From: Squalus acanthias | Lineage: Eukaryota | Length of the DNA: 64,000 nt | Direction: 5' to 3' | NCBI GenBank assembly: GCA_030390025.1 | Contig: CM059431.1 | Span: forward strand, 148,492,001 to 148,556,000 | Shown here: piece by piece, positions 6,604 to 52,323 of the stretch | Layout of the letters: each line of letters starts with the position of its first letter | How positions within the stretch are numbered: the first letter of the stretch is position 1 | Translations under genes and position numbers: made by a program | Notes under the pieces: generated by a model | Database searches by the model: none | The model's input: the letters and a program-made list of their open reading frames with translations, nothing else | What the model was told of the DNA's origin: nothing

Positions 6604-7107
6604 ATGGAAGCAAAAAGCACCGTTCTGTGAGTGGACGAGGATTCAGCCGACCCACTGACCTGTCGAGACACAAGCTCAGTCACACTGGGGAGAGGCCGTT
6701 CACCTGCTCCGTTTGTCGGAATGGATTCACTCAGTCATCCACCCTGCTGACACAGCAGCGAGTTCACACTGGGGAGAGGCCGTTCACCTGCTCCGTGTGT
6801 GGGAATGGAAAAACTGCGTCACCCACCCTCCTGACACACCAGCGGGTTCACACTGGTGAGCGGCCGTTCAGCTGCTCCGTGTGTGGGAAGGGATTCACTC
6901 AGTCACCCACACTGCTGACACACCAGCGGGTTCACACTGGAGAGGCCGTTCACCTTCTCTGTGTGCGGAAAGGGATTCACTCAGTCATCCACCTTGCTGA
7001 GACACTAGCGAGTTCACACTGGGGAGAGGCCGTTCACCTACTTTGAGTGTGGGAAGGGGTTAATTTCTACATCCAGCCAGCTAACACAACAGCGAGTACA
7101 CAACTGA
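6604..7107 (+). pseudogene. C2H2 (Kruppel-type) zinc-finger pseudogene, about 6 fingers
   Basis: Repeated HTGERPFxCxxCGxGFTQS..L..HQRVH; first finger truncated, 2-nt frameshift at ~6940, in-frame TAG at ~7006, Cys/His losses; acceptor tttacag at 6488-6494 and AATAAA at 7253. Confidence 0.88.
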
Positions 7108-8800: not shown

Positions 8801-9055
8801 TGTTGATGGAGCCTTACCCTGAATCTAACCCGTGCTATGCCTGCCCTTGGTGTATTTTATGGGACAGTGCAGAGGGAGCAATAATATAGAGAGTCACCAG
8901 CAGAGGGGGGCAGGGAGAGGTATGCAGCTGAGTGAGCAATGATACAGAGAGACACCATCAGAGGGAAATAGATAAAGGTGAGACTGGGCACTGTGATACA
9001 GAGAGACCCCAGCAGAGGGAGATAGATAAAGGTGAGACTGAGTGCTGTGATACAT

Positions 9056-9543
9056 GATGCGGAGATAGCGGGTTAGCGTTCCCCAAGGCGGCCTTCGAGA
9101 CACACGACAACGCAAAATCATCGTGCAGAAACTGATAGCCAAGTTCCGCACCCATGAGGACGGCCTCAATAGGGATATTGGGTTTGTGTCACGCTACAGA
9201 ACGTGACTCGACATCGTTGTCTGTCTACCCAGTTTAAAAAAAAACACAACAAAAAAACAAAAAAAAGGTTAAAAGGTCAACTGCAGACGGCAGGATTTGA
9301 CACGTTGGAGCCCCTGTGACCCATCTCATTGTCTTGGCTGTGCTCTGTTGTGTCTTTGATGTAATGCCTCCCTGAAAGATTGTATCTCTGCAGACAAATT
9401 GCTTTCTGTGTTTATATACTGTGTAATACTGTAGATTCCCTCATTGTACCTTTACCTGACGAAGGGGCAACAGCTCCGAAAGCTTGTAATTTTAAATAAA
9501 TCTGTTGGACTATAACCAGGTGTTGTGCGACTTCTCATTTTTT
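9056..9543 (+). mobile_element. Penelope-like element 3' end (GIY-YIG C-terminus plus terminal region)
   Basis: RVSVPQGGLRDTRQRKIIVQKLIAKFRTHEDGLNRDIGF at ~9068-9186, followed by a hammerhead motif. Confidence 0.85.
9452..9489 (+). ncRNA. Minimal type I hammerhead ribozyme motif (intact core)
   Basis: ttac-CTGACGA-A-GGGGC(AACA)GCTCC-GAAA-GCTT-gtaa: stem I ttac/gtaa, 5-bp stem II, palindromic AGCT helix III. Confidence 0.85.
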
Positions 9544-9679
9544 GTGTGATACAGAGAGACACCAGCAGAGGGAGACAAATAAACGTGAAACTGATTACTG
9601 TGATACAATGAGACACCAGCAGATGGAGATAGAGAAAGGTGAGACTGAGCACTGTGAAACAGAAAGACACCAGCAGAGA

Positions 9680-20106: not shown

Positions 20107-21355
20107 ATAGAAGCATAGAAGCATAGAAGATAGGAGCAGGAGTAGGCCATTCGGCCACTCGAGACTGCTCCGCCATTTAATGAGACCATGGCTGATCATC
20201 CAAATTCAGTACTCTGTTTCTGCTTTCTCCCCATATCCCTTGATCCCTTTAGCCTGAAGAAATATATCTATCTCCCTCTTGAATATATTCAATGAATTGG
20301 CCTCAACTGCCTTCTGTGGTAGAGAATTCCACAGGTTCACCACTCTCTGGGTTAAGAAATACGTCCTCATCTCAGTCCTAAATGGCTTACCCCTTATCCT
20401 TAGAATGTGACCTCTGGTTCCAGACTCCTCCGCCATCGGGAACATCTTTCCTGCATCTAGTCTGTCTAGTCCTGTTAGAATTTTTTTAAGTTTCAATGAG
20501 ATGCCCTCTCATTCTTCGAAAATCTAACGAGTATAAGCCTAATCGACCCAATCTCTCTTCATACTTCATTCCTGCCATTCCAGATTTCAGTCTGTTAAAT
20601 CTTCGCTGCATTCCCTCCATGGCAAGAACATCCTTCCTCAGATAAGGCGACCAAAACTGCACACAATACTCAAGGTGTAATCTCACCAAGGCCTTGTACA
20701 ACTGTAGCAAGACATCCTTGCTCCTGTACTCGAATCCTCTCGCTGTGAAGGCCAACATACCATTTGCCTTCTTAACCGCCTGCTGCACCTGCATGCTTAC
20801 CTTCAGCGACTGGTGCACAAGGACACTCAGGTCTCGTTGCACTACCCCTTTTCCCAGTCTATTGCCGTTCAGATGATAATCTGTCCTCCAGTTTTGCCAC
20901 CAAAGTGGAGAATCTCGCATTTATCCACATGATACTGCATCTGCCATGCATCTGCCCAATCACCCAACCTGTCAAAATCATGCTGGAATTTCGCTGCATC
21001 CTCCTCAAAGCACACATGCCCACCCAGCTTTGTGTCGTCTGCAAACTTAGATATATTACATCTAGTTCCCTCAGCTAGATCATATATATATATTGTGAAT
21101 AGCTGAGGTCCTAGCACCGATTCCTGTCGTACCCCACTAGTAACTGCCTGCCACTCGAAAAAAGACCCGTTTATTCCAACTCTTTGCTTCCTGTCTGCCA
21201 ACCAGTTCTCTATCCAAATCAGTACCTCATCTCAAATCCCATGTGCTTTAACTTTGCACGCTAATCTCTTATGCGGGACCTTATCGGAACCCTTCTGAAA
21301 GTCCAAATGCACCACATCCACTGTTTCTCCCTCATCTTTTCTTCCAGTTAAATCA
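20107..21355 (-). mobile_element. CR1 LINE, RT-containing 3' 1.25 kb
   Basis: DVVHLDFQK..SVLGPQLF..SKFADDTKL..EYCVQFW; (atagaagc)n tail; same subfamily as 56985-60455. Confidence 0.92.
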
Positions 21356-22326
21356 TCTCTTGCTCTCCCCCCGTCTCTCTCTCTCTCCAGTCTCTCTCTC
21401 TCTACGACTGTCTCTCTCTCTCCACATTCTCTCTCGATCTCTCCAGTTCCCTTACTCCCGTATCTCTTTCCAGTCTCTCTCTCCCCAAGTCTCTCTCTCA
21501 CCAGTCCCTCTCTCTCTCTCACAAGTCTCTCAGTCTCTCTCCCCCAGACTCCCTCTCTCCCCTATCTCTCTCTTTCCCCAGTCTCTCTCTCTCCCGGTCT
21601 CTTTATTCTCTGCAGTCTCTCTCTCCCACAGACTCTCACTCCCTCCCCATTGTCTCTCTCCCCCATTACTTCTGTCTCACGAGTCTCTCTCTCCGCTTTG
21701 TATCTCTCCCCAGTCCCTCTCTCTCCCCAAAGCTCTCTCTCTCCAGCAGTCTTTCTCACTCTGCAGTCTATCTCTCCCAGTCTCACTCTCCTCCAGCCTC
21801 TCACTCTCCCCAGTCTCTCTCTCCCACCACAGTTTCTCCCTGCTGAAGTCTCTCTCTATCTCCAATCTCTCTCTCTCCAATGTCTCTCTCTCTCCCCAGT
21901 CTCTCTCGCTCCCTCAGTCACTCTCTGTCTCCAATTTCTCTCACCGCTAGTCTCTCTCGCTCTCTCCCAATCTTGCTTTCCCTAGTCTCTCTCAAACACA
22001 GTCTCACTATCCTACAGCCTCTCAATCTCCACAGTCTATCTCTCTCCCCAGTCTATCCCAACCCCAGTCTCTCTCTATCTCCAGTATATCTCTCTCCGCT
22101 GTCTCTCTCTCGCCCCTGTCTCTCTCGCACCCCCAGAAACTCTCTCTCTCTGCAGTCTCTCTCTCACCCCCAGTCTCTCTTTCTGTTTCCTAATCTTGTG
22201 CTCCCAAGTCTCTCTCTCCCCTAGTCTCTCACTCTACCCCAGTCTCTCTCTCTCTCTGGTCTCCCTCTCGCTCACCATTCGCTAATTTCCCAGTCTCTTA
22301 CTCTCCCCCAGTCTCTCTCCCTCCTC

Positions 22327-22360
<34 letters not shown>

Positions 22361-22700
22361 CAGTTGTTCCCCTGGCAGGTGTGTCTAGAACTAGTGGGCA
22401 TAGTCTCAGGATAAGGAGTATCCCATTTAATACCGAGATGATGAGGAATTTCTTACGTCAGAGTTTTCTGATTCTTTGCAATTCTCTGCCCCAGAAGGCT
22501 GTGAATGCTGAGTCTTTGAGGTTATTCCAGGCTGAGATAGATAGATTTCTGGAATCTTTGGGAATAAAGGGAAATGGAGATCGGGTAGTAAAGTTGAGGT
22601 CGATGATCACCCATGATCTGATTGAAAGGTGGAGCAGGCCCGGGGCCACGTATGGCCTAATCTTGTTCTACGTTCTAATTTTCTTATGTTGTTATATTCT
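22361..22700 (+). mobile_element. CR1 3' fragment, copy 4 of 4
   Basis: cagttgttcccctggcagg start, same extent. Confidence 0.85.
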
Positions 22701-23984
22701 CTCTCATCTCTCCCCAGTCTCTCTCTCTGTCTCCCAGTCTCTATCTCCCCCAGTCGCTCTCTGTCTCTAACTGTCTCTCTCTCTCTCCCCAGATTCTCTC
22801 TCTCCTCCCTAAGTGTGTGAGATAGAGACTGAGAGAGAATGTGGCAGAAACTGAGAGAGATTGAGATAGAGACTGAGAGAGAGTGAGACCGAGACTGAGA
22901 GAGTGAGACAGAGACTCAGAGAGTGAGACAGAGACTGAGAGAGAGTGAGACCGAGACGGAGAGAGAGTGAGACAGAGAATGAGAGAGAGTGAGATCGGGA
23001 CTGAGAGAGAGTGAGACCGAGACTGAGAGAGAGTGAGACCGAGACTGAGAGAGAATGAGACCGAGACTGTGAGAGAGTGATACCGAGACTGAGAGAGAGG
23101 GAGACCGAGACTGAGAGAGAGTGAGACCGAGACTGAGAGAGTGTGAGACAGAGACTGAGGGAGTGTGAGACCGAGACTGAGAGACAGAGCGCGAGACTGA
23201 GAGAGAGTGAGAAGGAGACTTGGAGAGAGTGAGACCGAGGCGGAGAGAGAGTGAGACCGAGACTGAGAGAGTGTGAAACCGAGACTGAGAGTGTAAGACC
23301 GAGACTGAGAGAGCGAGACCAAGACTGAGAGAGTGTGAGACCGAGACTGAGAGAGAGTGAGACCGAGACTGAGAGAGAGTGAGACCGAGACTGAGAGAGA
23401 GTGATACCGAAACTGAGAGAGAGTGAGACCGAAACTGAGAGAGAGTGAGACCGAGACTGAGAGAGAGTGAGACCGAGACTGAGAGAGAGTGAGACCGAGA
23501 CTGAGAGAGAGTGATACCGAGACTGTGAGAGAGTGATACCGAGACTGTGAGAGAGTGAGACCGAAACTGAGAGAGAATGAGACCGAGACTGAGAGTGAGA
23601 CCGAGACTGAGAGAGAGTGAGACCGAGACTGAGAGAGAGTGAGACCGAGACTGAGAGAGAGTGATACCGAGACTGTGAGAGAGTGAGACCGAAACTGAGA
23701 GAGAATGAGACCGAGACTGAGAGTGAGACCGAGACTGAGAGAGAGTGAGACCGAGACTGAGAGAGAGTGAGACCGAGACTGAGAGAGAGTGATACCGAGA
23801 CTGTGAGAGAGTGAGACCGAAACTGAGAGAGAGTGAGACCGAGACTGAGAGAGAGTGAGACCGAGACTGAGAGTGAGACCGAGACTGAGAGAGAGTGAGA
23901 CCGAGACTGAGAGAGTGACAGAGACTGAGAGAGAGTGAGACCGAGACTGAGAGAGAGTGAGACCGAGACTGAGAAGAGAGAGAA

Positions 23985-24112
23985 AATGTGGAGATGCCGG
24001 TGTTGGACTGGGGTGGGCAAATGTGAGAAGTCGCTCAGCACCTGGTTATATTCCAACAGCGTTATTTGAATCCACAAGCTTTCGGAGCGCTGCTCCTTCG
24101 TCAGGTGAAGAC
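23985..24112 (-). mobile_element. Solo Penelope-like terminal fragment (~125 bp) inside the minisatellite
   Basis: Reverse complement aligns with 9452-9540 (..aaataa..ctgttgga.tataaccaggtg.tg.gcgacttctca). Confidence 0.85.
24072..24108 (-). ncRNA. Minimal type I hammerhead ribozyme motif (intact core)
   Basis: Minus strand: tcac-CTGACGA-A-GGAGC(AGC)GCTCC-GAAA-GCTT-gtgg. Confidence 0.85.
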
Positions 24113-24994
24113 CGATACTGAGAGAGAGTGAGAACGAGACTGAGAGAGAGAGTTCGAGACTGAGAGAGAGTGAGACCGAGACTGGGAGAGAGTGAGACCG
24201 ATACTGAGAGTGAGGCCGAGACTGAGAGAGTGAGACCGAGACTGAGAGAGAGTGAGACCGAGACTGAGAGAGAGTGAGTCCGATACTGAGAGTGAGACCG
24301 AGACTGAGAGAGTGAGACCGAGACTAAGAGAGAGTGAGACCGATACTGAGAGTGAGGCCGAGACTGAGAGAGTGAGACCGAGACTGAGAGAGAGAGAGAC
24401 CGAGACTGAGAGAGAGAGCACGACATAGTGAGGACGTCGGGCAGAGTGGCAGAGATAGACAGGAGAGATAGATGGAGATAGAGAGATTGGAGAGGTTAAT
24501 AGATATAGATAGGGAGAGAGAGGGTAACGGAGATAGAGGAGAGATAGAGCGATGTGAAATTATTTCATAGCGAAAGGGAGAGAGAGAGAAAGGTTGGCAG
24601 AGATAGAGGAGAGATAGATGGTAGCAAACAAACGCGGAGTGAAAGCGGATTATAGAAAGAGTGAGATGATTTTTCCTCTTGCTTCTGTGAAATTATGTAT
24701 GAGGTGGGCCCTTTGAGCTGGTAGTGATCCTTTGATAAAATGTACTTTATTACTGAGTGTGATCTCAGCTTTTTTATCTCCAAAAATGGGACAGAGCGGA
24801 GTTGCTGACAGCTCAACAGAAGCCAATTGTTGGAAGGACAGTAGAGTTGTTCCAGGAAGAATGTGTATTAATTTAAATGCACTGGGATGACAGAAGCAGG
24901 AATTGATATCTCGACACTGGTCCGACAGAGACTGGAGCTGAGCATCCCAGGGAGCGGCATCACTGAGAGAGGGGAGGCAGTGATCGTTGGGTAA

Positions 24995-25340
24995 GGCACA
25001 GGCTCCATCCACGCCCTGTGTTTAGTTAGCCTTATCTCACACCCGTTGTGGCACTGAGCATCACATACACACACAGAGCAGGAGAGGCCCAGGCTCCATC
25101 CCCGGCCTGTGCTAAGTTAGCCTGAATTCAACCGATGTGATACTGAGCCCCACACACACACAGAGCAGGAAAGCCCCAGGCTCCATCCCCGGCCTGTGCT
25201 GAGTTAGCCTGAATTCAACCGCTGTGGTACTGAGTTCCACACTCGCAGAAATCAAGAAAGGCCCAGGCTCTATCCCCGGGCTGTGCTGAGATAGCCTGAA
25301 CTAACACCCCGTGTGGTACTGGGCCCCACATAGACCGAGA
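24995..25340 (+). repeat. 87-91 bp tandem repeat, ~4 copies, resembling a tRNA-derived SINE head
   Basis: caggctccatccccggcctgtgctgagttagc at 24999, 25090, 25177, 25264. Confidence 0.8.
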
Positions 25341-25344
25341 TTCG

Positions 25345-27415
25345 GACAGTGTAGAGGGAGTTTTACGCTATATCTAACCCATGCCATATCTGCCGTAGTA
25401 GCGTTTGATGGGGCCGTGTAGAGTGAGCTTCACGCTTTATCTAACACGGGGTGTATATGCCCTGTGAGAGCCTGATGGGACAGTGTAGAGAGAGCTTTAT
25501 TCTGTATCTAATCCCTGCTGTGCCAGCCCTGGGAGTGTTTGATGGGACAGTGTAGAGGGAGCTTTACTCTGTATCTAATCCGTGCTTTATCTGCCTTGGT
25601 AATGTTTTATGGGACAGTGTAGAGGGAGCTTTACTCTGTATCTAGCCTGTGCTGTACCTGCCCTGGGAGCATTTGATGGGAAACTGTAGAGGGAGCTTTA
25701 CTCTGCATATAATCCGTGCTGTACCTGCCCTTGGTAGTGTTGAAGTTGAAAGTGTACAATGAGCTTTACTCTCTAACTAATACGTGCTGTATCTGCCCTG
25801 AAAGTATAGAAGGGCAGTGTAGAGGCAGATTTACTTTGTATCTAACCCGTTCATTATCTGCCCTTGGAGTGTTTCATGGGACAGTGTAGAAGGAGCATTA
25901 CTTTGTATCTATCGCGTGCTGTTCATGCCCTGGGCGTGTTTGATGGGACAGTGCAGAGGGAGCTTTACTTTCAATCGAAACCATGCTAAACCTGCCCTGG
26001 GAGTATTTGCTGGGACAGTGTAGAGGGAGCTTTACCCTGTATCTATCCCTTGTTATACCTGACCTGGGAGTGTTTGATGGGACAGTGTTGATGAAGTTTT
26101 ACTTTGTATCTATCGCGTGCTGTTCATGCCCTGGGAGTGTTTGATGGGACAGTGTAGAGGGAGCTTTACTCTGTATCTAAACGTTGTTATACCTCCCCTC
26201 GGAGTGTTTGCTGGGACAGTGTAGAGGGAGCTTTACTCTGTATCTAACCCGTGCTGTATCTGCCCCTTGAGTGTTTGAGGGGGCTGTGCAGAGGGAACTT
26301 TACTCTGTATCTAACCCGTGCTATACCTGCCCTGGGAGTGTTTGATGGGACAGTGTAGAGGGAGGTTTACTCGGTATTTATCCCGTGCTGTACCTGCCCT
26401 GGGAGTGTTTGATGGGACAGTGTAGATGGAGCTTTACTCTGTATCTAACCCCATGCTGTACCTGACCTGGGAGTATTTGATGGGAATCTGTAGAGGGAGC
26501 TTTACTCTGTATATAATCCGTGTTGTACCTGCCCTTGGTAGTGTTGAAGTTGACAGTGTACAGAGAGCTTTACTCTCTAACTAATACGTGCTGTATCTGC
26601 CCTGGGAGTATTTGATGGGAAACCGTAGAGGGAGCTTTACTCTGTATCTAACCCTGTGCTGTACCTGCCCTGGGAGTGTTTGATGGGACAGTGTAGAGGG
26701 AGCTTTACTCTGTATCTAACCATTTTTATACCTGCCCTGGGAGTGTTTGATGTGACAGTGTACAGGGACCATTACTCTATCGAACCCCGTGCTGTACCTG
26801 CCCTGGGAGTGTTTGATGGGACAGTGTAGAGGGAGCATTACTCTCTATCTAACCGTTGTTATACCTCCCTTCGGAGTGTTTGCTGGGACAGTGTAGATGG
26901 AGCTTTACTCTGTATCTAACCCGTGCTGTATCTGCCCCGGGAGTGTTTGAGTGGGCTGTGCAGAGGGAACTTTACTCTGTATCTAACCCGTGCTGTACCT
27001 GCCCTGGGAGTGTTTGATGGGACAGTATAGAGGGAGCTTTACTCTGTATCTAACCCGTGCTGTACCTGCCCTGGGAGTGTTTGATGGGATAGTGCAGAGG
27101 GAGCTTTACTCTTTATTTAACTCGTGCTGTACCTGCCCTGGGAGTGTTTGATGGGACAGTGTAGAGGGAGCTTTACTCTGTATCTAACCCCGTGATCTAC
27201 CTGCCCTGGGAGCGTTTGATGGGGCAGTGCAGAGGGACCTTTACTCTGTATCGAACCCTTGTTATACCTGCCCTGTGAATGTTTGATGGGACAGTGTAGA
27301 GGGAGCTTTACTCTGTATCTAACCCCGTGCTGTACCTGCCCTGGGAGTGTTTGATGGGACAGTGTAGAGGTTACTTTACTCTGTATCGAACCTCGTTCTG
27401 TACCTGCCGGGGGAG
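25345..27415. repeat. 67-bp satellite, ~31 copies
   Basis: gtgtagagggagctttactctgtatctaacccgtgctgtacctgccctgggagtgtttgatgggaca; a dispersed monomer also at ~8800-8880. Confidence 0.95.
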
Positions 27416-27854
27416 CAGTTTAAACTAAGATGGCTGTCATTACCCATGCCTCACAGTACTGAGCATTAATCTGAGAATGTAGTTGTGTTCGTCATTCCTG
27501 TTAGTACAAAACTCCTTCTGTTCAGCCTGTAAGGTTCTGTCTATCGCTGGGGTCCGGTTTACTCGGCAGTTCCTTCACGGGTCAGTGCTGCGTATTGCTA
27601 TTGAACCTCGGAGACGTCACGGTCAGACTCCATCTTGATTTCTACTTCCTTAACATCGGCCGTCTCCGCCCCTGCCTGAGCTCATCTTCTGCTGAAATCC
27701 TCATACATGTCTTGGTTACCTCTAGACACGAAATCCTGAGAACAAATAGATATAAATAATGTAATAGGAATATAATCAATGATTTTTAATTCACTGATTG
27801 AAACCAGGCAAGGCCTGTGATCAGAGCGGGGCGTCATGCTCCGCTAAACAAATT

Positions 27855-28400
27855 ACATAGAATCATACAGCACAGAAGGAGTCCATTCATTCCATCGAAC
27901 CTGTGCCAGCTCTTTGAAAGAGCTATTCAATTAGTTACCTTCCCCTGTTTTTTTCCCATAGTCCTGCAAATCCCTCACTTCCATAATTGATCCCGTTCCC
28001 TTTTGAAAGTCATTATTGAACCTGCATCTATTACCTTTTAAGGCAGTGCATACCAGATCATAACAACTCGCTTCTTAGAAAAGATTCTCCTCATCATCCC
28101 TCTGGTTCTTTTCCGGATTATCTTATATATTTTTCTTCTGGTTACCGACCAGATATTTTCTCCCTATTTATTCTATAAAACCCGTCATAATTTTGAACAA
28201 CTCCAGTATATCTCCTTTTTATATTGCGTGCTCTCTGGAGAACAATTCCAGCTTCTCTTGTCACTCAGCATAAATTAAGTCCTTCATCCTTGGTATCATT
28301 CTGGTAAATCTCCTCTGTACCCACTCCAACACCTTGACATGTTTCCTAAAGTGTGCAGCCAAGAATTGGACACAATACTCCAGCCGGGGCTTAAAATTGT
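27855..28400 (-). mobile_element. CR1 LINE 3' fragment
   Basis: atagaatcatacagcacagaagg tail; ccaagaattggacacaatactccagc (LEYCVQF) end. Confidence 0.8.
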
Positions 28401-28509
28401 ACAGTTAAGTTTATATTTTCCCTATTCATTTTCCTCCCAGATTTATCGTTCACATTTCTATGCATTTAATTTCATTAGACTTGTTTTCATGTTTATTAAT
28501 ACATCTGAT

Positions 28510-29765
28510 GTGGCCATGGCTGACACGGTCAGCAATTAATGCACATCCCTAATTCCCCTTGAGAAGGTGGATTTGCCACCTTCTGGAACCGCTGCAGCTC
28601 GTGAGTTGAATGTTCTCCCACAGTGCTGTTACGAAGGGAGTTGCAGGATTTTGACCCAACGACGATGAAGGAACAACGATGTACTTCCAAACCAGGAAGC
28701 TGTCTGACTTGGAAGGGAACTTGGAGTTGGATACGTTTCCTTGCGCCTGCTGCCCTTCTCCGTCTAGATGGTAGAGTTCGTTGGTTTGGGAGGTGCTGTC
28801 GAAGAAGCCTTGGCCAGTTGCTGCAATGCATCTTGTAGATGGTACACTCTGCATCCACGGTGCGCCGGTGGTGGAGGGAGTGAATGTTTAAGGTCCTGGT
28901 TTTGGTGCCAATCAAACAGGCTGCTTTGTACTGGGTGACGTCGAGTATCTTGAGTGTTGTTGGGGCTGTACTCATCCAGGCAAGTGGAATCTATTCCATA
29001 ACACATCTGACTTGTGCCTTGTAGATGGTGGAAATGCTTTGGGATGTCAGGATGTGAGGCAATCGTCGCAGAATACCCAGGCTCTGACCTGATTTTGTAG
29101 CCACAATTTTTATGTGGCTGGTTCCGGTCCAGTTAAGTTTCTGTTGAATGGTGACCCTCAGGATATTGATGCAGGGGATTTGGCGGTGGTAATGCCATTG
29201 AATGTCACGGGAAGCTGGCTCTTGTTAGAGATCGTCATTGCCTGGCACTTTGTGGTGCGAGTGTTACTTGCCACTAATCAGCAAAAACCTGAAATTCGAC
29301 CAGGTCTTGCTGAATGCGGACACGGGCTGCTTCATTTTCTGAGGAGTTTCGAATGGAAGTGACCACTGCAAACTTAAGCGAATATCCCCATTTCTGACCT
29401 TAAGATGAAGGGATGGTCATTGATGAAGCAGCTGAAGATGGTTGGGCCTTGGAGACTTCATTGAGCAATTCCTGCAGCGATGTCCTGCGACTGAGACTGT
29501 TGACTTCCAACAACCACAGCCATCTTCCTTCTTGCTAGGTATGACTCCAGCCAATGAAGAGTTTACCCCCTCATTCCCAATGACTCCAGCTTTACGATGT
29601 TGGCAGTCACTCTCACCTCAGCTCTCGAATTCAGCTCTTTGTCCATGTTTCGACAAAGGCTGTAATGTAGTCTGGAGCCGAGCGGCCCTGTCTGAAACCA
29701 AGCTGAGCGTCGATGAGTAGGTTATTGGTGGGCAAGGACCACTTAACAGCAGTGTCGCTGACACC
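28510..29765 (-). mobile_element. CR1-clade LINE family B fragment
   Basis: LNIHSLHHRRTV..CTIYKMHCSN; colinear with 61710-63010. Confidence 0.85.
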
Positions 29766-29779
29766 TTTATCACTTTTCT

Positions 29780-30480
29780 CTTTTCACCAGTCTGTCTCTG
29801 TCTCCTGAAGCCTGCTACTATACCACTCAGTGTTTACTACATTTCCCAGTTTTGGTTCATCTGCATACGAACAAATTATGCCCTTTACATATATATATAG
29901 TCTATATCATTAATATTTATCAAAAAGATAAATGTTTCAAATAGGGAACCCTTTGGGACACCATTGTCTACTTCCCTCCAGCCTGAGCAACAGCCATTCA
30001 ACACTAACTTTTGTTTTTTGTCCCTTTGCCAAAGCTAGATCCCCACTGCCACTGCCACTTTAGTCTTATCTAGATTTTTTATGGCACTTCATTAAATGGA
30101 TTTTTAAAGTCCATATACACAACGTCAACCACGCAAAACTCATCAATCATGTACGTTACTTCATCAAAATACTTAATCAAGTTTGTCAGACACACTTTGC
30201 TGTTAACATATCTGTGCTGGTTGTCATTTATTAAACCATGTTTCTTTCCAAGTGGCAGATAATTTTATCCGGGAATATGGCCTCTAGAACTTTCCCCATC
30301 AACGACGTTAGCCTGACTGTCCTATAGTAACATTGTTCATTCCTCTCTTCTTTTTTAAACTGGGTGTAACATTTGCAACCATGCAATCCTTTGGCCCCAC
30401 TCCCATATCCAAGGAGCGTTGAAAGATTCTGGCCAGATCCTGCGCTATTTCCACCATTCCTTCCCTCAGCAACCCTCATA
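29780..30480 (-). mobile_element. CR1 RT-region fragment
   Basis: YRTVRLTSLMGKVLEAI and decayed downstream RT motifs. Confidence 0.7.
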
Positions 30481-30564
30481 CATTCCAGCTGGACCGCGGA
30501 AAAGTTCTAATTTACTATGGTAGAAAACGTGCTGGATTGAAAGGGGTTAACAGAAGCTGTTTTT

Positions 30565-30720
30565 TCAGTGATTTTAATTAATGTCAGTCTCCACTGATTA
30601 ACTGAAACTGTTTGTTCAGTGACTGTAATTAATGTCAGTCTCGGTGGACCGTAATTCTCTCAGTGCAGGGTTTCCCTCTTCTATTAATAAGGGACTCCTT
30701 TCAATGTGTTATCCCATAGT
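30565..30720 (+). promoter_or_regulatory. Putative GPCR promoter block
   Basis: ctgtttgttcagtgactgtaattaatg...g.tttccctct shared with 53581-53660, upstream of both first exons. Confidence 0.55.
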
Positions 30721-45510: not shown

Positions 45511-46320
45511 AACCCGGGAGAGTTCAAAAGCAGCAGGAGCAGAGCGACAGCGATAAAACCCGGTAGAGTTCAAAAGCAGCGGGGGCAGAGCCAGAGCGCC
45601 AAAACACGGGAGAGTTGAAGACAGCGGGAGCAGAGCGAGAGGGCCAAAACCCGGGAGTTTTCAAAAGCAGCGGGAGCAGAGCCAGAGCGCCAAATCCCAG
45701 GAGAGTTCAAAAGCAGCGGGAGCAGAGCGAAATCGCCAAAACCCGGGAGAGTTCAAAAGCAGCGGGAGCAGAGCGAGAGCGCAAAAACCCGAGAGAGATC
45801 AAAAGCAGCGGGTGCAGAGCGAGAGTACCAAAACACGAGAGAGTTCAAAAGCAGCGGGTGCGGAGCTAGAGCGCCAGAACCCGAGAGAGTTCAAAAGCAG
45901 CGGGAGCAGTGCGAGAGCGCCAAAATTCGGGAGAGCTCAAAAGCAGCGGGAGCAGAGCGAGAGCGCCAGAACCCGAGAGAGTTCAAAAGCAGCGGGAGCA
46001 GTGCGAGAGCGCCAGAACCCGAGAGAGTTCAAAAGCAGCGGGAGCAGAGCGAGAGCGCCAGAACCCGAGAGAGTTCAAAAGCAGCGGGAGCAGTGCGAGA
46101 GCGCCAAAACCCGGGAGAGTTCAAAAGCAGCGGGAGCAGTGCGAGAGCGCCAAAACCCGGGAGAGTTCAAAAGCAGCGGGAGCAGTGCGAGAGCGCCAAA
46201 ACCCGGGAGAGTTCAAGAGCAGCGCGAGCACTGCGAGAGCGCCAAAACCCGGGAGAGTTCAAAAGCAGCGGGAGCAGTGCGAGAGCGCCAAAACCCGGGA
46301 GAGTTCAAGAGCAGCGGGAG
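45511..46320 (+). repeat. 46-bp CpG-rich tandem monomer array (~17 copies) at the CR1 5' end
   Basis: aaaacccgggagagttcaaaagcagcgggagcagtgcgagagcgcc. Confidence 0.93.
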
Positions 46321-50661: not shown

Positions 50662-52323
50662 GGCTCAGTTGACAGCAAACTCGCCTCTGAGTCAGAAGGT
50701 TGTGTGTTCAATTCCAACTCCAGCGACGTGATTACAAAAATCTAGGATGACACTCCAGTGCAGTACTTAGGGAGCGCTGCACTGTCGGAGGGGCAGTACT
50801 GAGCTATCGCTGCACTGTCGGAGGGGCAGTGCTGAGGGAGCGCGTCACTGTCGGAGGGGCAGTTTTGAGGGAGCGCTGCACTGTCGGAGGGTCTGTACTG
50901 AGGTAACACTGCACTGATGGAGGGACAGTACTGAGGGAGCGCTGCACTGTTTGTGGGTCAGTACTGAAGGTGAGCTTCACTGTCGGAGGATCAGTACACA
51001 GGGATCACTTCACTGTCTGAGCGGCAGTACTGAGGGATCGCTGCACTGTCGGAGGGTCAGTACTGAAGGAGCGCTGCTGTGTAGGAGGGGCAGTACCGTG
51101 GGATCATTGCACTGTCGTAGGGTCAGTCCTGAGGGAACGCTGCACTGTCTGAGGGGCTGTACTGAGGAAGAGCTGCACTGTCAAATGGGCAGTACCGTAG
51201 GAGCGTTTTATTGTTGAAGGGTTAGTACTGAGGGAGCGCTGCACTGTCGGAAGAGCAGTACTGAACGAGTGCTGCACTGTTGGAAGTTCAGGGAGCACTG
51301 TCTTTTCGAGGGACAGTATTGATGGAGTGTTGCACTGTCAGAGTGAAAGTACTGAGGGAGAGCTCTACTGTTGCAGAGGCATTATTGAAGGAGCGCTGCA
51401 CTGTCAGAGGGGCAGTTCTGAGGGGGCGATGCACTGTCGGAGGGGCAGTACTGAGGGAGAGCTGCACAGTCGCAGTACTGTACTGAGGGACCGATGCACT
51501 GCCGGAGTGGCAGTGATGAGGGAGCCCTGCACTGTCGGATGGTCATTACTGAGGGAGCTCTGTATTCGCGGAGGGGCAATACTGAGGGAGCGCTGCACTG
51601 TCTGAGCGGCAGTACTGAGGGATCGCTGCACTGTCGGTTGGTCAGTACTGAAGGAGCGCTGCACTGCCGTAGGTATAGTACCGAGGGATCACTGCACTGT
51701 CGGAGGGTCACTACTGAGGGAGCGCTGCATTGTCTGAGGGGCTGTACTGAGGAAGCGCTACACTGTCAAATGGGCAATACTGAGGGAGCGCTGCACTGTC
51801 GGAGGGGCAGTACTGCGGCAGCGCTGCACTGTCGGAGCGGCAGTACTGCAGCAGCGTTGCACTGTCGGAGGGGCAGTACTGAGGGATAGCTGCACTGTCG
51901 GAGGGGCAGTACTGAGGCAGCGCTGCACTGTCGGAGGGGCAATACTGAAGTGGCGCTGCACTGTTGAAGGGTCAGTACGGAGGGAGCGCTGCACTGTTGA
52001 AGGGTTAGTACTGAGGGAGCGCTGCACTGTTGTAGGGTCAGTACTGAGGGAGCGCTGCACTGTCGGAGAGGCAGTACTGAGGGAGCGCTGCACTGTCGGA
52101 AGGGCAGTACTGAGCGAGTGCTGCACTGTTCGACCTGCAGGGAGCACTGTATTGTCGAGGGACAGTAATGGCGGAGTGTTGCACTGTCAGAGTGAAAGTA
52201 CTGAGGGAGTGCTCGACTGTTGTAGAGGCAGTACTGAGGGAGTACTGTCCTGTCGGAGGGGCCGTCTTTAGGATGCTCTCTTTGGTCGTTAAAGGTGCTC
52301 TATAAATGCAAGTCTTTCTTTCT
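50662..52323 (+). mobile_element. Deu-type SINE with internal 33-bp minisatellite expansion
   Basis: Head ggctcagttg..gttcaattcc (50662-50713), array, then gccgtctttaggatg and tail ctataaatgcaagtctttcttt. Confidence 0.85.
50760..52262. repeat. 33-bp minisatellite, ~45 copies
   Basis: cagtactgagggagcgctgcactgtcggagggg. Confidence 0.95.

Follow-up and report, generated by a model that had tools for sequence, protein, structure and literature searches.

The stretch of DNA analysed here, hereafter the window, spans 64,000 nucleotides of the Squalus acanthias genome (assembly GCA_030390025.1, contig CM059431.1, positions 148,492,001 to 148,556,000). At 23986..24110 it carries a 125-bp insert on the minus strand, running from 24110 (5′) to 23986 and corresponding to the 5′ leader of a Penelope/Poseidon element. 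With C3 of the hammerhead core taken as 0, the insert is numbered from −6 to +118; its 5′ edge lies 1 nt inside the predicted transcription start and its 3′ edge 1 nt before the ORF start codon. The host sequence is a minisatellite of period 22 with about 75 copies, delimited by a tandem-repeat scan (22817..24416), and its repeats hide any target-site duplication of the insert. At the 5′ junction (24109..24110, minus strand), a 2-nt CT microhomology links element and minisatellite. This copy has neither the start A (−7) nor a cap-derived G. A solo hammerhead cassette of about 125 bp within a minisatellite had been described here in the initial annotation, and we recovered both, together with the ~90 nt that follow the predicted cleavage site within the insert.

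A pattern search located a minimal type I hammerhead at 24072..24108 on the minus strand, with the anatomy of the min-HHRs of PMC4209133. The core extends from 24104 to 24076, with a first block at 24104-24098 followed by a bulged A. Stem I (tcac/gtgg) pairs 24108-24105 with 24075-24072, and stem II (GGAGC/GCTCC, loop AGC) pairs 24096-24092 with 24088-24084 and is followed by GAAA; a palindromic AAGCUU replaces stem III. The insert thus presents the conserved core, stems I and II and the palindromic stem III region of a minimal type I hammerhead, and cleavage is predicted between 24076 and 24075, i.e. between +28 and +29. In the window, the pattern search returned two cores only, that of the insert and that of a second copy at 9452. 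The isolated sequence folds into the hammerhead stems with a stability no better than that of shuffles (z −0.76). An Rfam scan gave no hammerhead match at the insert and one chance miRNA match in the minisatellite. The motif is nevertheless not a chance one, since a 33-mer across the hammerhead has 14,219 exact copies in the 3.7-Gb genome compared with 0 for its reversed control.

Downstream of the hammerhead, the rest of the pseudo-LTR (pLTR) occupies 24020..24071 (minus strand) and ends near +79 to +90, the point at which arms lacking a tail stop; by analogy with Anolis PAc (PMC11167929), this would be an inner start of reverse transcription. The Penelope "tail" of ~34 nt follows at 23986..24019 (minus strand) and stops just before the ORF ATG, and its end would, by the same analogy, be the outer start (PMC11167929, PMC8557442).

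The insert differs from a family member, L031, by 9 mismatches over 122 nt. An identical insert is found 1.75 Mb away, inside an inverted segmental duplication of at least 10 kb that joins 20361-30607 of the window to G000:C7:150258000-150267999 with 93-96% identity; the twin is therefore not an independent insertion. The insert is a decayed, probably inert copy of a known kind of element.

The window also contains tandem arrays at 2610-2881 (period 92), 25344-27415 (period 67), 45511-46320 (period 46) and 50760-52262 (period 33). Elsewhere, the Penelope stubs L133, L249, L250 and L086 lie in sequence resembling the 67-bp repeat. A further repeat at 6680-7102, with an 84-bp period and about 5 copies, is one that we take to resemble a C2H2 zinc-finger array.

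The Penelope source family and the variation of its stems

A 24-mer of the pLTR, taken from the 3′ part of the insert, has 98,558 exact matches genome-wide, i.e. at least 98,558 end repeats. Longer family copies run upstream into the pseudo-LTR, and in some copies an ORF begins right after the last base of the insert, the same tail followed by the ORF being found in L011 and L113. In L113, the ORF immediately following the same pLTR and tail encodes a reverse transcriptase (RT; PF00078, E 2e-9) along with a GIY-YIG endonuclease at its C-terminus (PF01541, E 3e-5), as expected of a source of EN+ Penelope-like elements (PLEs). The pLTRs in partial tandem, the inverted 5′-truncated copy and the 30-40-nt tail at one end only are likewise those of EN+ PLEs, and the Penelope origin proposed at the outset is thereby borne out. 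A PDB search with the L113 ORF gave no match. We take the clade to be putatively Penelope/Poseidon from the domain order and the likeness of the ORF ends. L113:1125-6397 is a nearly complete element preceded by a long inverted copy; the upstream pLTR of its direct ORF starts at −18, without a TATA box, and the ORF frame is broken near the C-terminus. In L057, two pLTR ends of different subfamilies stand in direct tandem, 127 nt apart, the second beginning exactly at its own TATA box.

The second copy in the window is a truncated Penelope-like insertion at 9053..9544 on the plus strand. It comprises an inverted tail stub of 14 nt (9053-9066), the ORF's C-terminal end (9069-9203, 86% identity over 43 aa to that of L113), a full pLTR with a TATA box at 9413 and an initiator-like A at 9443 (plus strand), and a hammerhead at 9452-9489 (plus strand); its 3′ end has no tail, and a duplication of ~9 bp flanks it (9046-9054 and 9545-9553). 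The insert is 85% identical to this copy over 88 nt. Both are truncated Penelope-like insertions, of different subfamilies, and the insert corresponds to the leader stretch from inside the pLTR to the start codon.

Three stem differences had been listed between the two copies and read as structural selection in the source elements. All three are present, and each preserves pairing. Their weight was examined on 223 parsed arms. At the third pair of stem I, C-G is found in 179/223 arms and U-A in 26/223; this is the sole true double change and it separates subfamilies. The third pair of stem II is A-U in 201/223 arms and G-U in 22/223, and the fifth pair of stem II is U-A in place of C-G in 4 of the 223. 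Loops vary from 3 to 9 nt in the same arms, while the core is held constant. The U-G pair of stem I, counted as a further sign of selection, is found in 1/223 arms and genome-wide only in the insert and its segmental-duplication twin, and the pair that bears it is unpaired in 26/223 arms; it is most simply explained by decay after insertion and does not stand as evidence of selection. On 15 variants, 97% of the cells pair, compared with 21-46% in slid controls, and a change on both sides was seen in one pair only, so that the covariation is thin. The pairing retained across subfamilies indicates that the ribozyme structure was probably kept in the source elements, as reported for other PLE hammerheads (PMC4209133), and this part of the earlier claim holds. 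Three loci (L091, L092 and L108) form a subfamily with the core CCGACGA (U4 to C) and a UUUA loop, in which a compensatory change of C-G to U-A is found at the top of stem II.

Position of the 5′ ends and the base that precedes them

The 5′ ends were read from 101 arms, the first in genome order among those selected by a 3′ anchor; the locus samples come mostly from the start of contig C1. Of these arms, 51 extend beyond −50, 8 end at −50 to −13, 18 at −12 to −4 and 24 at −3 to +47. The density is about 2 ends per nt at −12 to −4, compared with 0.2 upstream and 0.5 downstream, and from this excess over the flanks roughly three in four or more of the ends at −12 to −4 belong to the hot spot. 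Exactly −7 is the end of 7/101 arms (nominal p 4e-8, the arms of one insertion not being independent). When loci were picked by the ribozyme instead, 18/30 started at −10 to −4. The best 40 of 2,147 scored matches were left out of these statistics because they are biased to junctions sharing the first two satellite bases of the query. A random distribution of 5′ boundaries had been named as the outcome that would speak against a distinct unit; the ends are non-random.

An initiator-like A occupies position −7, and 24/26 distinct parent sequences have a TATA-like box 30-33 nt upstream of such an A; in the other two the spacing is 27 nt in one and no box was matched in the other. The same TATA spacing places the initiator-like A at −7 in some subfamilies and at −13/−14 in others, among them the 9452 copy. 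In the −13 subfamilies, 31/35 loci proved to be copies of the element, each beginning at its own initiator. The A of TC-ACTT, which precedes the hammerhead by 7 nt, is thus the predicted start of RNA made from the pLTR promoter, and the pLTR of Adineta likewise has a TATA box and a TCACT initiator (PMC3846280). RNA contigs of three other organisms show a step in depth at this place, although a start is not visible in contigs, whose depth may reflect the number of genomic copies. We also considered a splice acceptor at the −7 boundary, the intron of the D. virilis Penelope ending at helix I (PMC4209133); this was rejected because no AG precedes −7 and 0/30 of the loci with G before the start share an upstream exon.

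The base before the −7 A is G 3,845 times genome-wide and A 571 times, while in the common parents −8 is C or T. The neighbouring control, one position farther upstream, gave a G:A ratio of 25:18 among the first 100 of 2,419 matches (Fisher p 3e-6); only the ratio was used, since a subfamily with C at −9 raises the counts of this control, 4/15 loci continuing into it. None of 30 loci with G (26 paired, 4 solo) continues into a parent pLTR, and the G is therefore not a subfamily allele. Among solo copies with G inspected by eye (n = 15), 7 have a G from neither parent nor target, 5 are explained by microhomology and 3 are ambiguous; by the same inspection, the A comes from the target in 9 of the 11 solo copies that have one. 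Where copies are paired, the other arm could in most cases equally have supplied the G at −8 as its final base, and the G can often be taken as microhomology. In the −13 subfamilies, the G:A count for one motif is 35:14 on C1-C24 and 4:46 in the other 50 rows, where the 46 A-preceded rows (G000 C29 and unplaced contigs) are probably one copy amplified inside a larger repeat; a second count gave 36:25, and this replicate is small, weak and without a neighbouring-position control. As the insert at 23986-24110 itself has neither the A nor the G, the cap signature is read from its sister copies. An extra cap-derived G is documented for full-length L1 insertions (PMC11702581).

Four independent pairs (L144, L145, L151 and L153) have one common junction, with the partner arm ending at +12 and TG standing before the start A, and the solo copies L187 and L199 likewise show TG before the start. 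After the C derived from the cap, one more base may be added by the enzyme.

Ribozyme cleavage was also considered as a source of the 5′ ends. In the 3′-anchored sample, 0/101 arms end at the cleavage site, +29. Genome-wide, 597 ends were counted at +29, 230 at +28 and 459 at +30 before removing point mutants; true ends made up 14/20, 5/10 and ~8/15 of the loci inspected at these positions, respectively, and 4 of the 14 true ends at +29 are accounted for by stem I microhomology, leaving a small bump at most.

Head-to-head pairs and solo copies

An adjacent inverted arm accompanies 35/42 short arms. Among the remaining 7, a tail is present in 2, one of which is accompanied by a long partner arm at a distance of 1.2 kb. 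The solo form, to which the tailed insert at 23986-24110 belongs, is thus rarer than the head-to-head pair. Exactly one tail was found in 48/52 short and 28/31 long inverted pairs (76/83 in total), and two tails were never seen. Target duplications measure 11-14 bp (about 12 bp) in 61/85 loci.

In 12/48 short pairs, the loop alleles, both of them common, differ between the arms, and 4 of these pairs show a further difference linked to the first; the pair set is not fully de-duplicated and the alleles were assigned by a rough rule. This discordance (0.25) falls short of the 0.57 that random pairing of the pooled sample would give. Since fold-back copying would give identical arms, the simpler reading is that discordant arms were copied from two RNA templates. 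Loop hypermutability or gene conversion may also be the source of such differences, and in 71 pair alignments 18 indels fall in the loop and 4 elsewhere.

Head-to-tail arrangements were searched for in 289 arms at 278 loci, and 1 direct pair within 600 nt was found, joining two different subfamilies. On L031:1270-1640, one contig of run X9 joins the tail end back to the start of the ribozyme, 121 nt back. This joint, seen at the level of contigs only, occurs in 1 contig of 1 of 4 RNA runs, from another organism, and does not lie at the cleavage site; a tandem or circular form in that organism is possible.

Probable run-off reverse transcription and competing explanations

The initial annotation had offered either an extreme 5′-truncated Penelope or a tiny non-autonomous unit. 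The insert is indeed a Penelope fragment, and what this choice misses is a fixed 5′ end without an independent unit. The best reading, which we hold to be probable as a whole, is that this end is set by the predicted transcription start: the insert would be a Penelope/Poseidon leader produced by reverse transcription from the internal tail site, running off the capped 5′ end of an RNA that starts 7 nt before the hammerhead. Thousands of sister copies share almost this start, preceded by an extra G, a likely mark of run-off, and the ribozyme in the insert is therefore likely a passenger and not a new self-spreading unit.

In such a mechanism, the pLTR promoter would start the RNA at the A of TC-ACTT. 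The protein would nick both target strands ~12 bp apart and prime at two internal sites, +79 to +90 and +118 to +128, a step modelled on Anolis PAc in vitro (PMC11167929). For that protein, nicking and extension of both strands have been described, with two internal RT starts that bound the tail; ribozyme cleavage was not needed, and a dimer is predicted (PMC11167929). Only ~90 or 125 nt of a pLTR-started RNA would lie 5′ of the internal sites, so that a short cDNA would result, its terminal C copied from the cap, while the long arms would stem from read-through RNAs. Microhomology would join two of the short cDNAs, in many cases copied from different RNAs, head-to-head; alternatively, one cDNA would join the target and yield a solo copy like the insert. 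The insert at 23986-24110 may have been such a solo product from the outset, or else a pair whose second arm was lost afterwards. The ribozyme would remain uncleaved in the template, its stems having been shaped in autonomous source elements, and short copies, having no TATA box, would be silent and dead on arrival.

A more elaborate version, to which we give a rather low probability, is that Penelope integrates as a protein dimer with two leader RNAs joined through the AAGCUU palindrome, each subunit priming one nicked strand at a different internal site and copying to the cap. The hammerhead would then be mainly a signal for RNA dimerisation and packaging, as the dimer-initiation site is in retroviruses, with tens of thousands of head-to-head stubs and solo leaders as strong-stop products of the element. 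When two copies of the ribozyme were folded together, they exchanged stem II and formed no palindrome duplex, and the dimer idea gains no support from this.

The same hot spot could arise if the reverse transcriptase stalled at the base of the folded hammerhead, or at a bound protein, with 5′ ends unlinked to the transcription start. The hot spot does lie 2-3 nt outside stem I, 24/101 arms end inside or just past the ribozyme, and the Anolis protein assists ribozyme folding (PMC11167929). We nevertheless judge stalling improbable: it leaves the G excess at one position unexplained, the enzyme would have to halt after passing the structure and not before it, and where the leader is 6 nt longer the G-preceded ends move to −13, again ~30 nt behind the TATA box. 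Random 5′ truncation, ending next to the ribozyme by chance and aided by the CT microhomology with the minisatellite, would fit the generality of 5′ truncation in PLEs (PMC8557442), the 59/101 arms that reach past −12, the 24/101 that end downstream of −4, and the missing cap G of the insert at 23986-24110. The step in end density at −12 to −4 over both flanks speaks against it, and there is little chance, in our estimate, that it accounts for the insert.

A tiny retrozyme-like or SINE-like unit, transcribed and re-mobilised as such, would explain a fixed length in thousands of copies; animal retrozymes do derive from pLTRs (bioRxiv 10.64898/2026.07.22.740005), and the X9 contig joins tail to ribozyme. 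This second half of the original proposal is largely refuted and now very improbable. Tandem arrays are lacking, with the single direct pair among 289 arms; the ends are not at the cleavage site, unlike those of a monomer; and junctions and duplications are copy-specific. The private changes of the insert recur only in its segmental-duplication twin, giving no sign of descent from short masters, and the TATA box lies outside the short copies, which thus have no promoter of their own. Finally, the inverted pairs could come from fold-back self-priming, on antisense RNA (PMC3846280) or at a cDNA end, the insert being a pair minus one arm. Many junctions are near-palindromic, and the four junction bases of the insert recur in a common pair junction, so that loss of an arm by microhomology is possible. 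Yet fold-back predicts identical arms, which the 12/48 discordant pairs are not; many junctions are asymmetric, one arm ending at +12 to +62, and the strict one-tail rule and the duplication outside both arms also run counter to it. We regard it as highly unlikely.

Much of the architecture is already known: inverted arms, one-sided tails and pLTR hammerheads have been described (PMC8557442, PMC2377424, PMC6155905), the tandem and inverted structures of PLEs being called unexplained (PMC8557442), and self-priming on antisense RNA has been proposed for them (PMC3846280). Anolis PAc (PMC11167929), D. virilis Penelope (PMC2377424) and Adineta Pen2a (PMC3846280) likewise have an ORF with RT and C-terminal GIY-YIG and a pLTR hammerhead, and share the 30-40-nt tail at one end only, the inverted 5′-truncated arm and AT-rich targets with a duplication. 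A TATA box and initiator in the pLTR are common to the dogfish family and Adineta (PMC3846280), whereas the D. virilis promoter is TATA-less and internal (PMC2377424); the ORF starts after the tail here but inside the ribozyme in PAc (PMC11167929). With the minimal hammerheads of metazoan PLEs (PMC4209133), the dogfish motif, known from its sequence, shares type I, the bulged base after the core, G10.1-C11.1, a short stem I, the palindromic stem III region, the many motifs that occur singly, the dual motifs on opposite strands and the variation between families; its stem II has 5 bp versus 7-8 bp in Schistosoma (PMC4209133). In what is accessible of the EN+ PLE literature, the inverted or upstream copy is variably truncated, with no class at the transcription start bearing a cap G and no arms from two RNAs. 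Our own search, of limited coverage, found no run-off to a capped start and no two-template pairs in PLEs.

Non-LTR retrozymes (bioRxiv 10.64898/2026.07.22.740005) are also non-coding, pLTR-derived and endowed with a type I hammerhead, and monomers exist; they are, however, tandem repeats with the ribozyme in at least 2 consecutive units, whereas the insert is single and its sisters are head-to-head. L1 shares the extra G at the 5′ junction and priming on both target ends (PMC11702581). The arms made by L1 twin priming come from neighbouring segments of a single RNA that scarcely overlap (PMC11702581), whereas both arms of the dogfish pairs span the same leader and their alleles can differ. 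The short Penelope cDNA appears to be integrated as is. In this it differs from retroviral strong-stop DNA, a short cDNA that runs off the 5′ end of the RNA and is then transferred onward.

With this non-random class of products, the insertion mechanism of PLEs becomes testable, and the pattern ties the internal start sites defined in vitro (PMC11167929) to genomic products. The predicted promoter start was mapped from fossil copies alone. The pattern also calls for caution, as many vertebrate "solo hammerheads" or "retrozyme monomers" may be run-off products.
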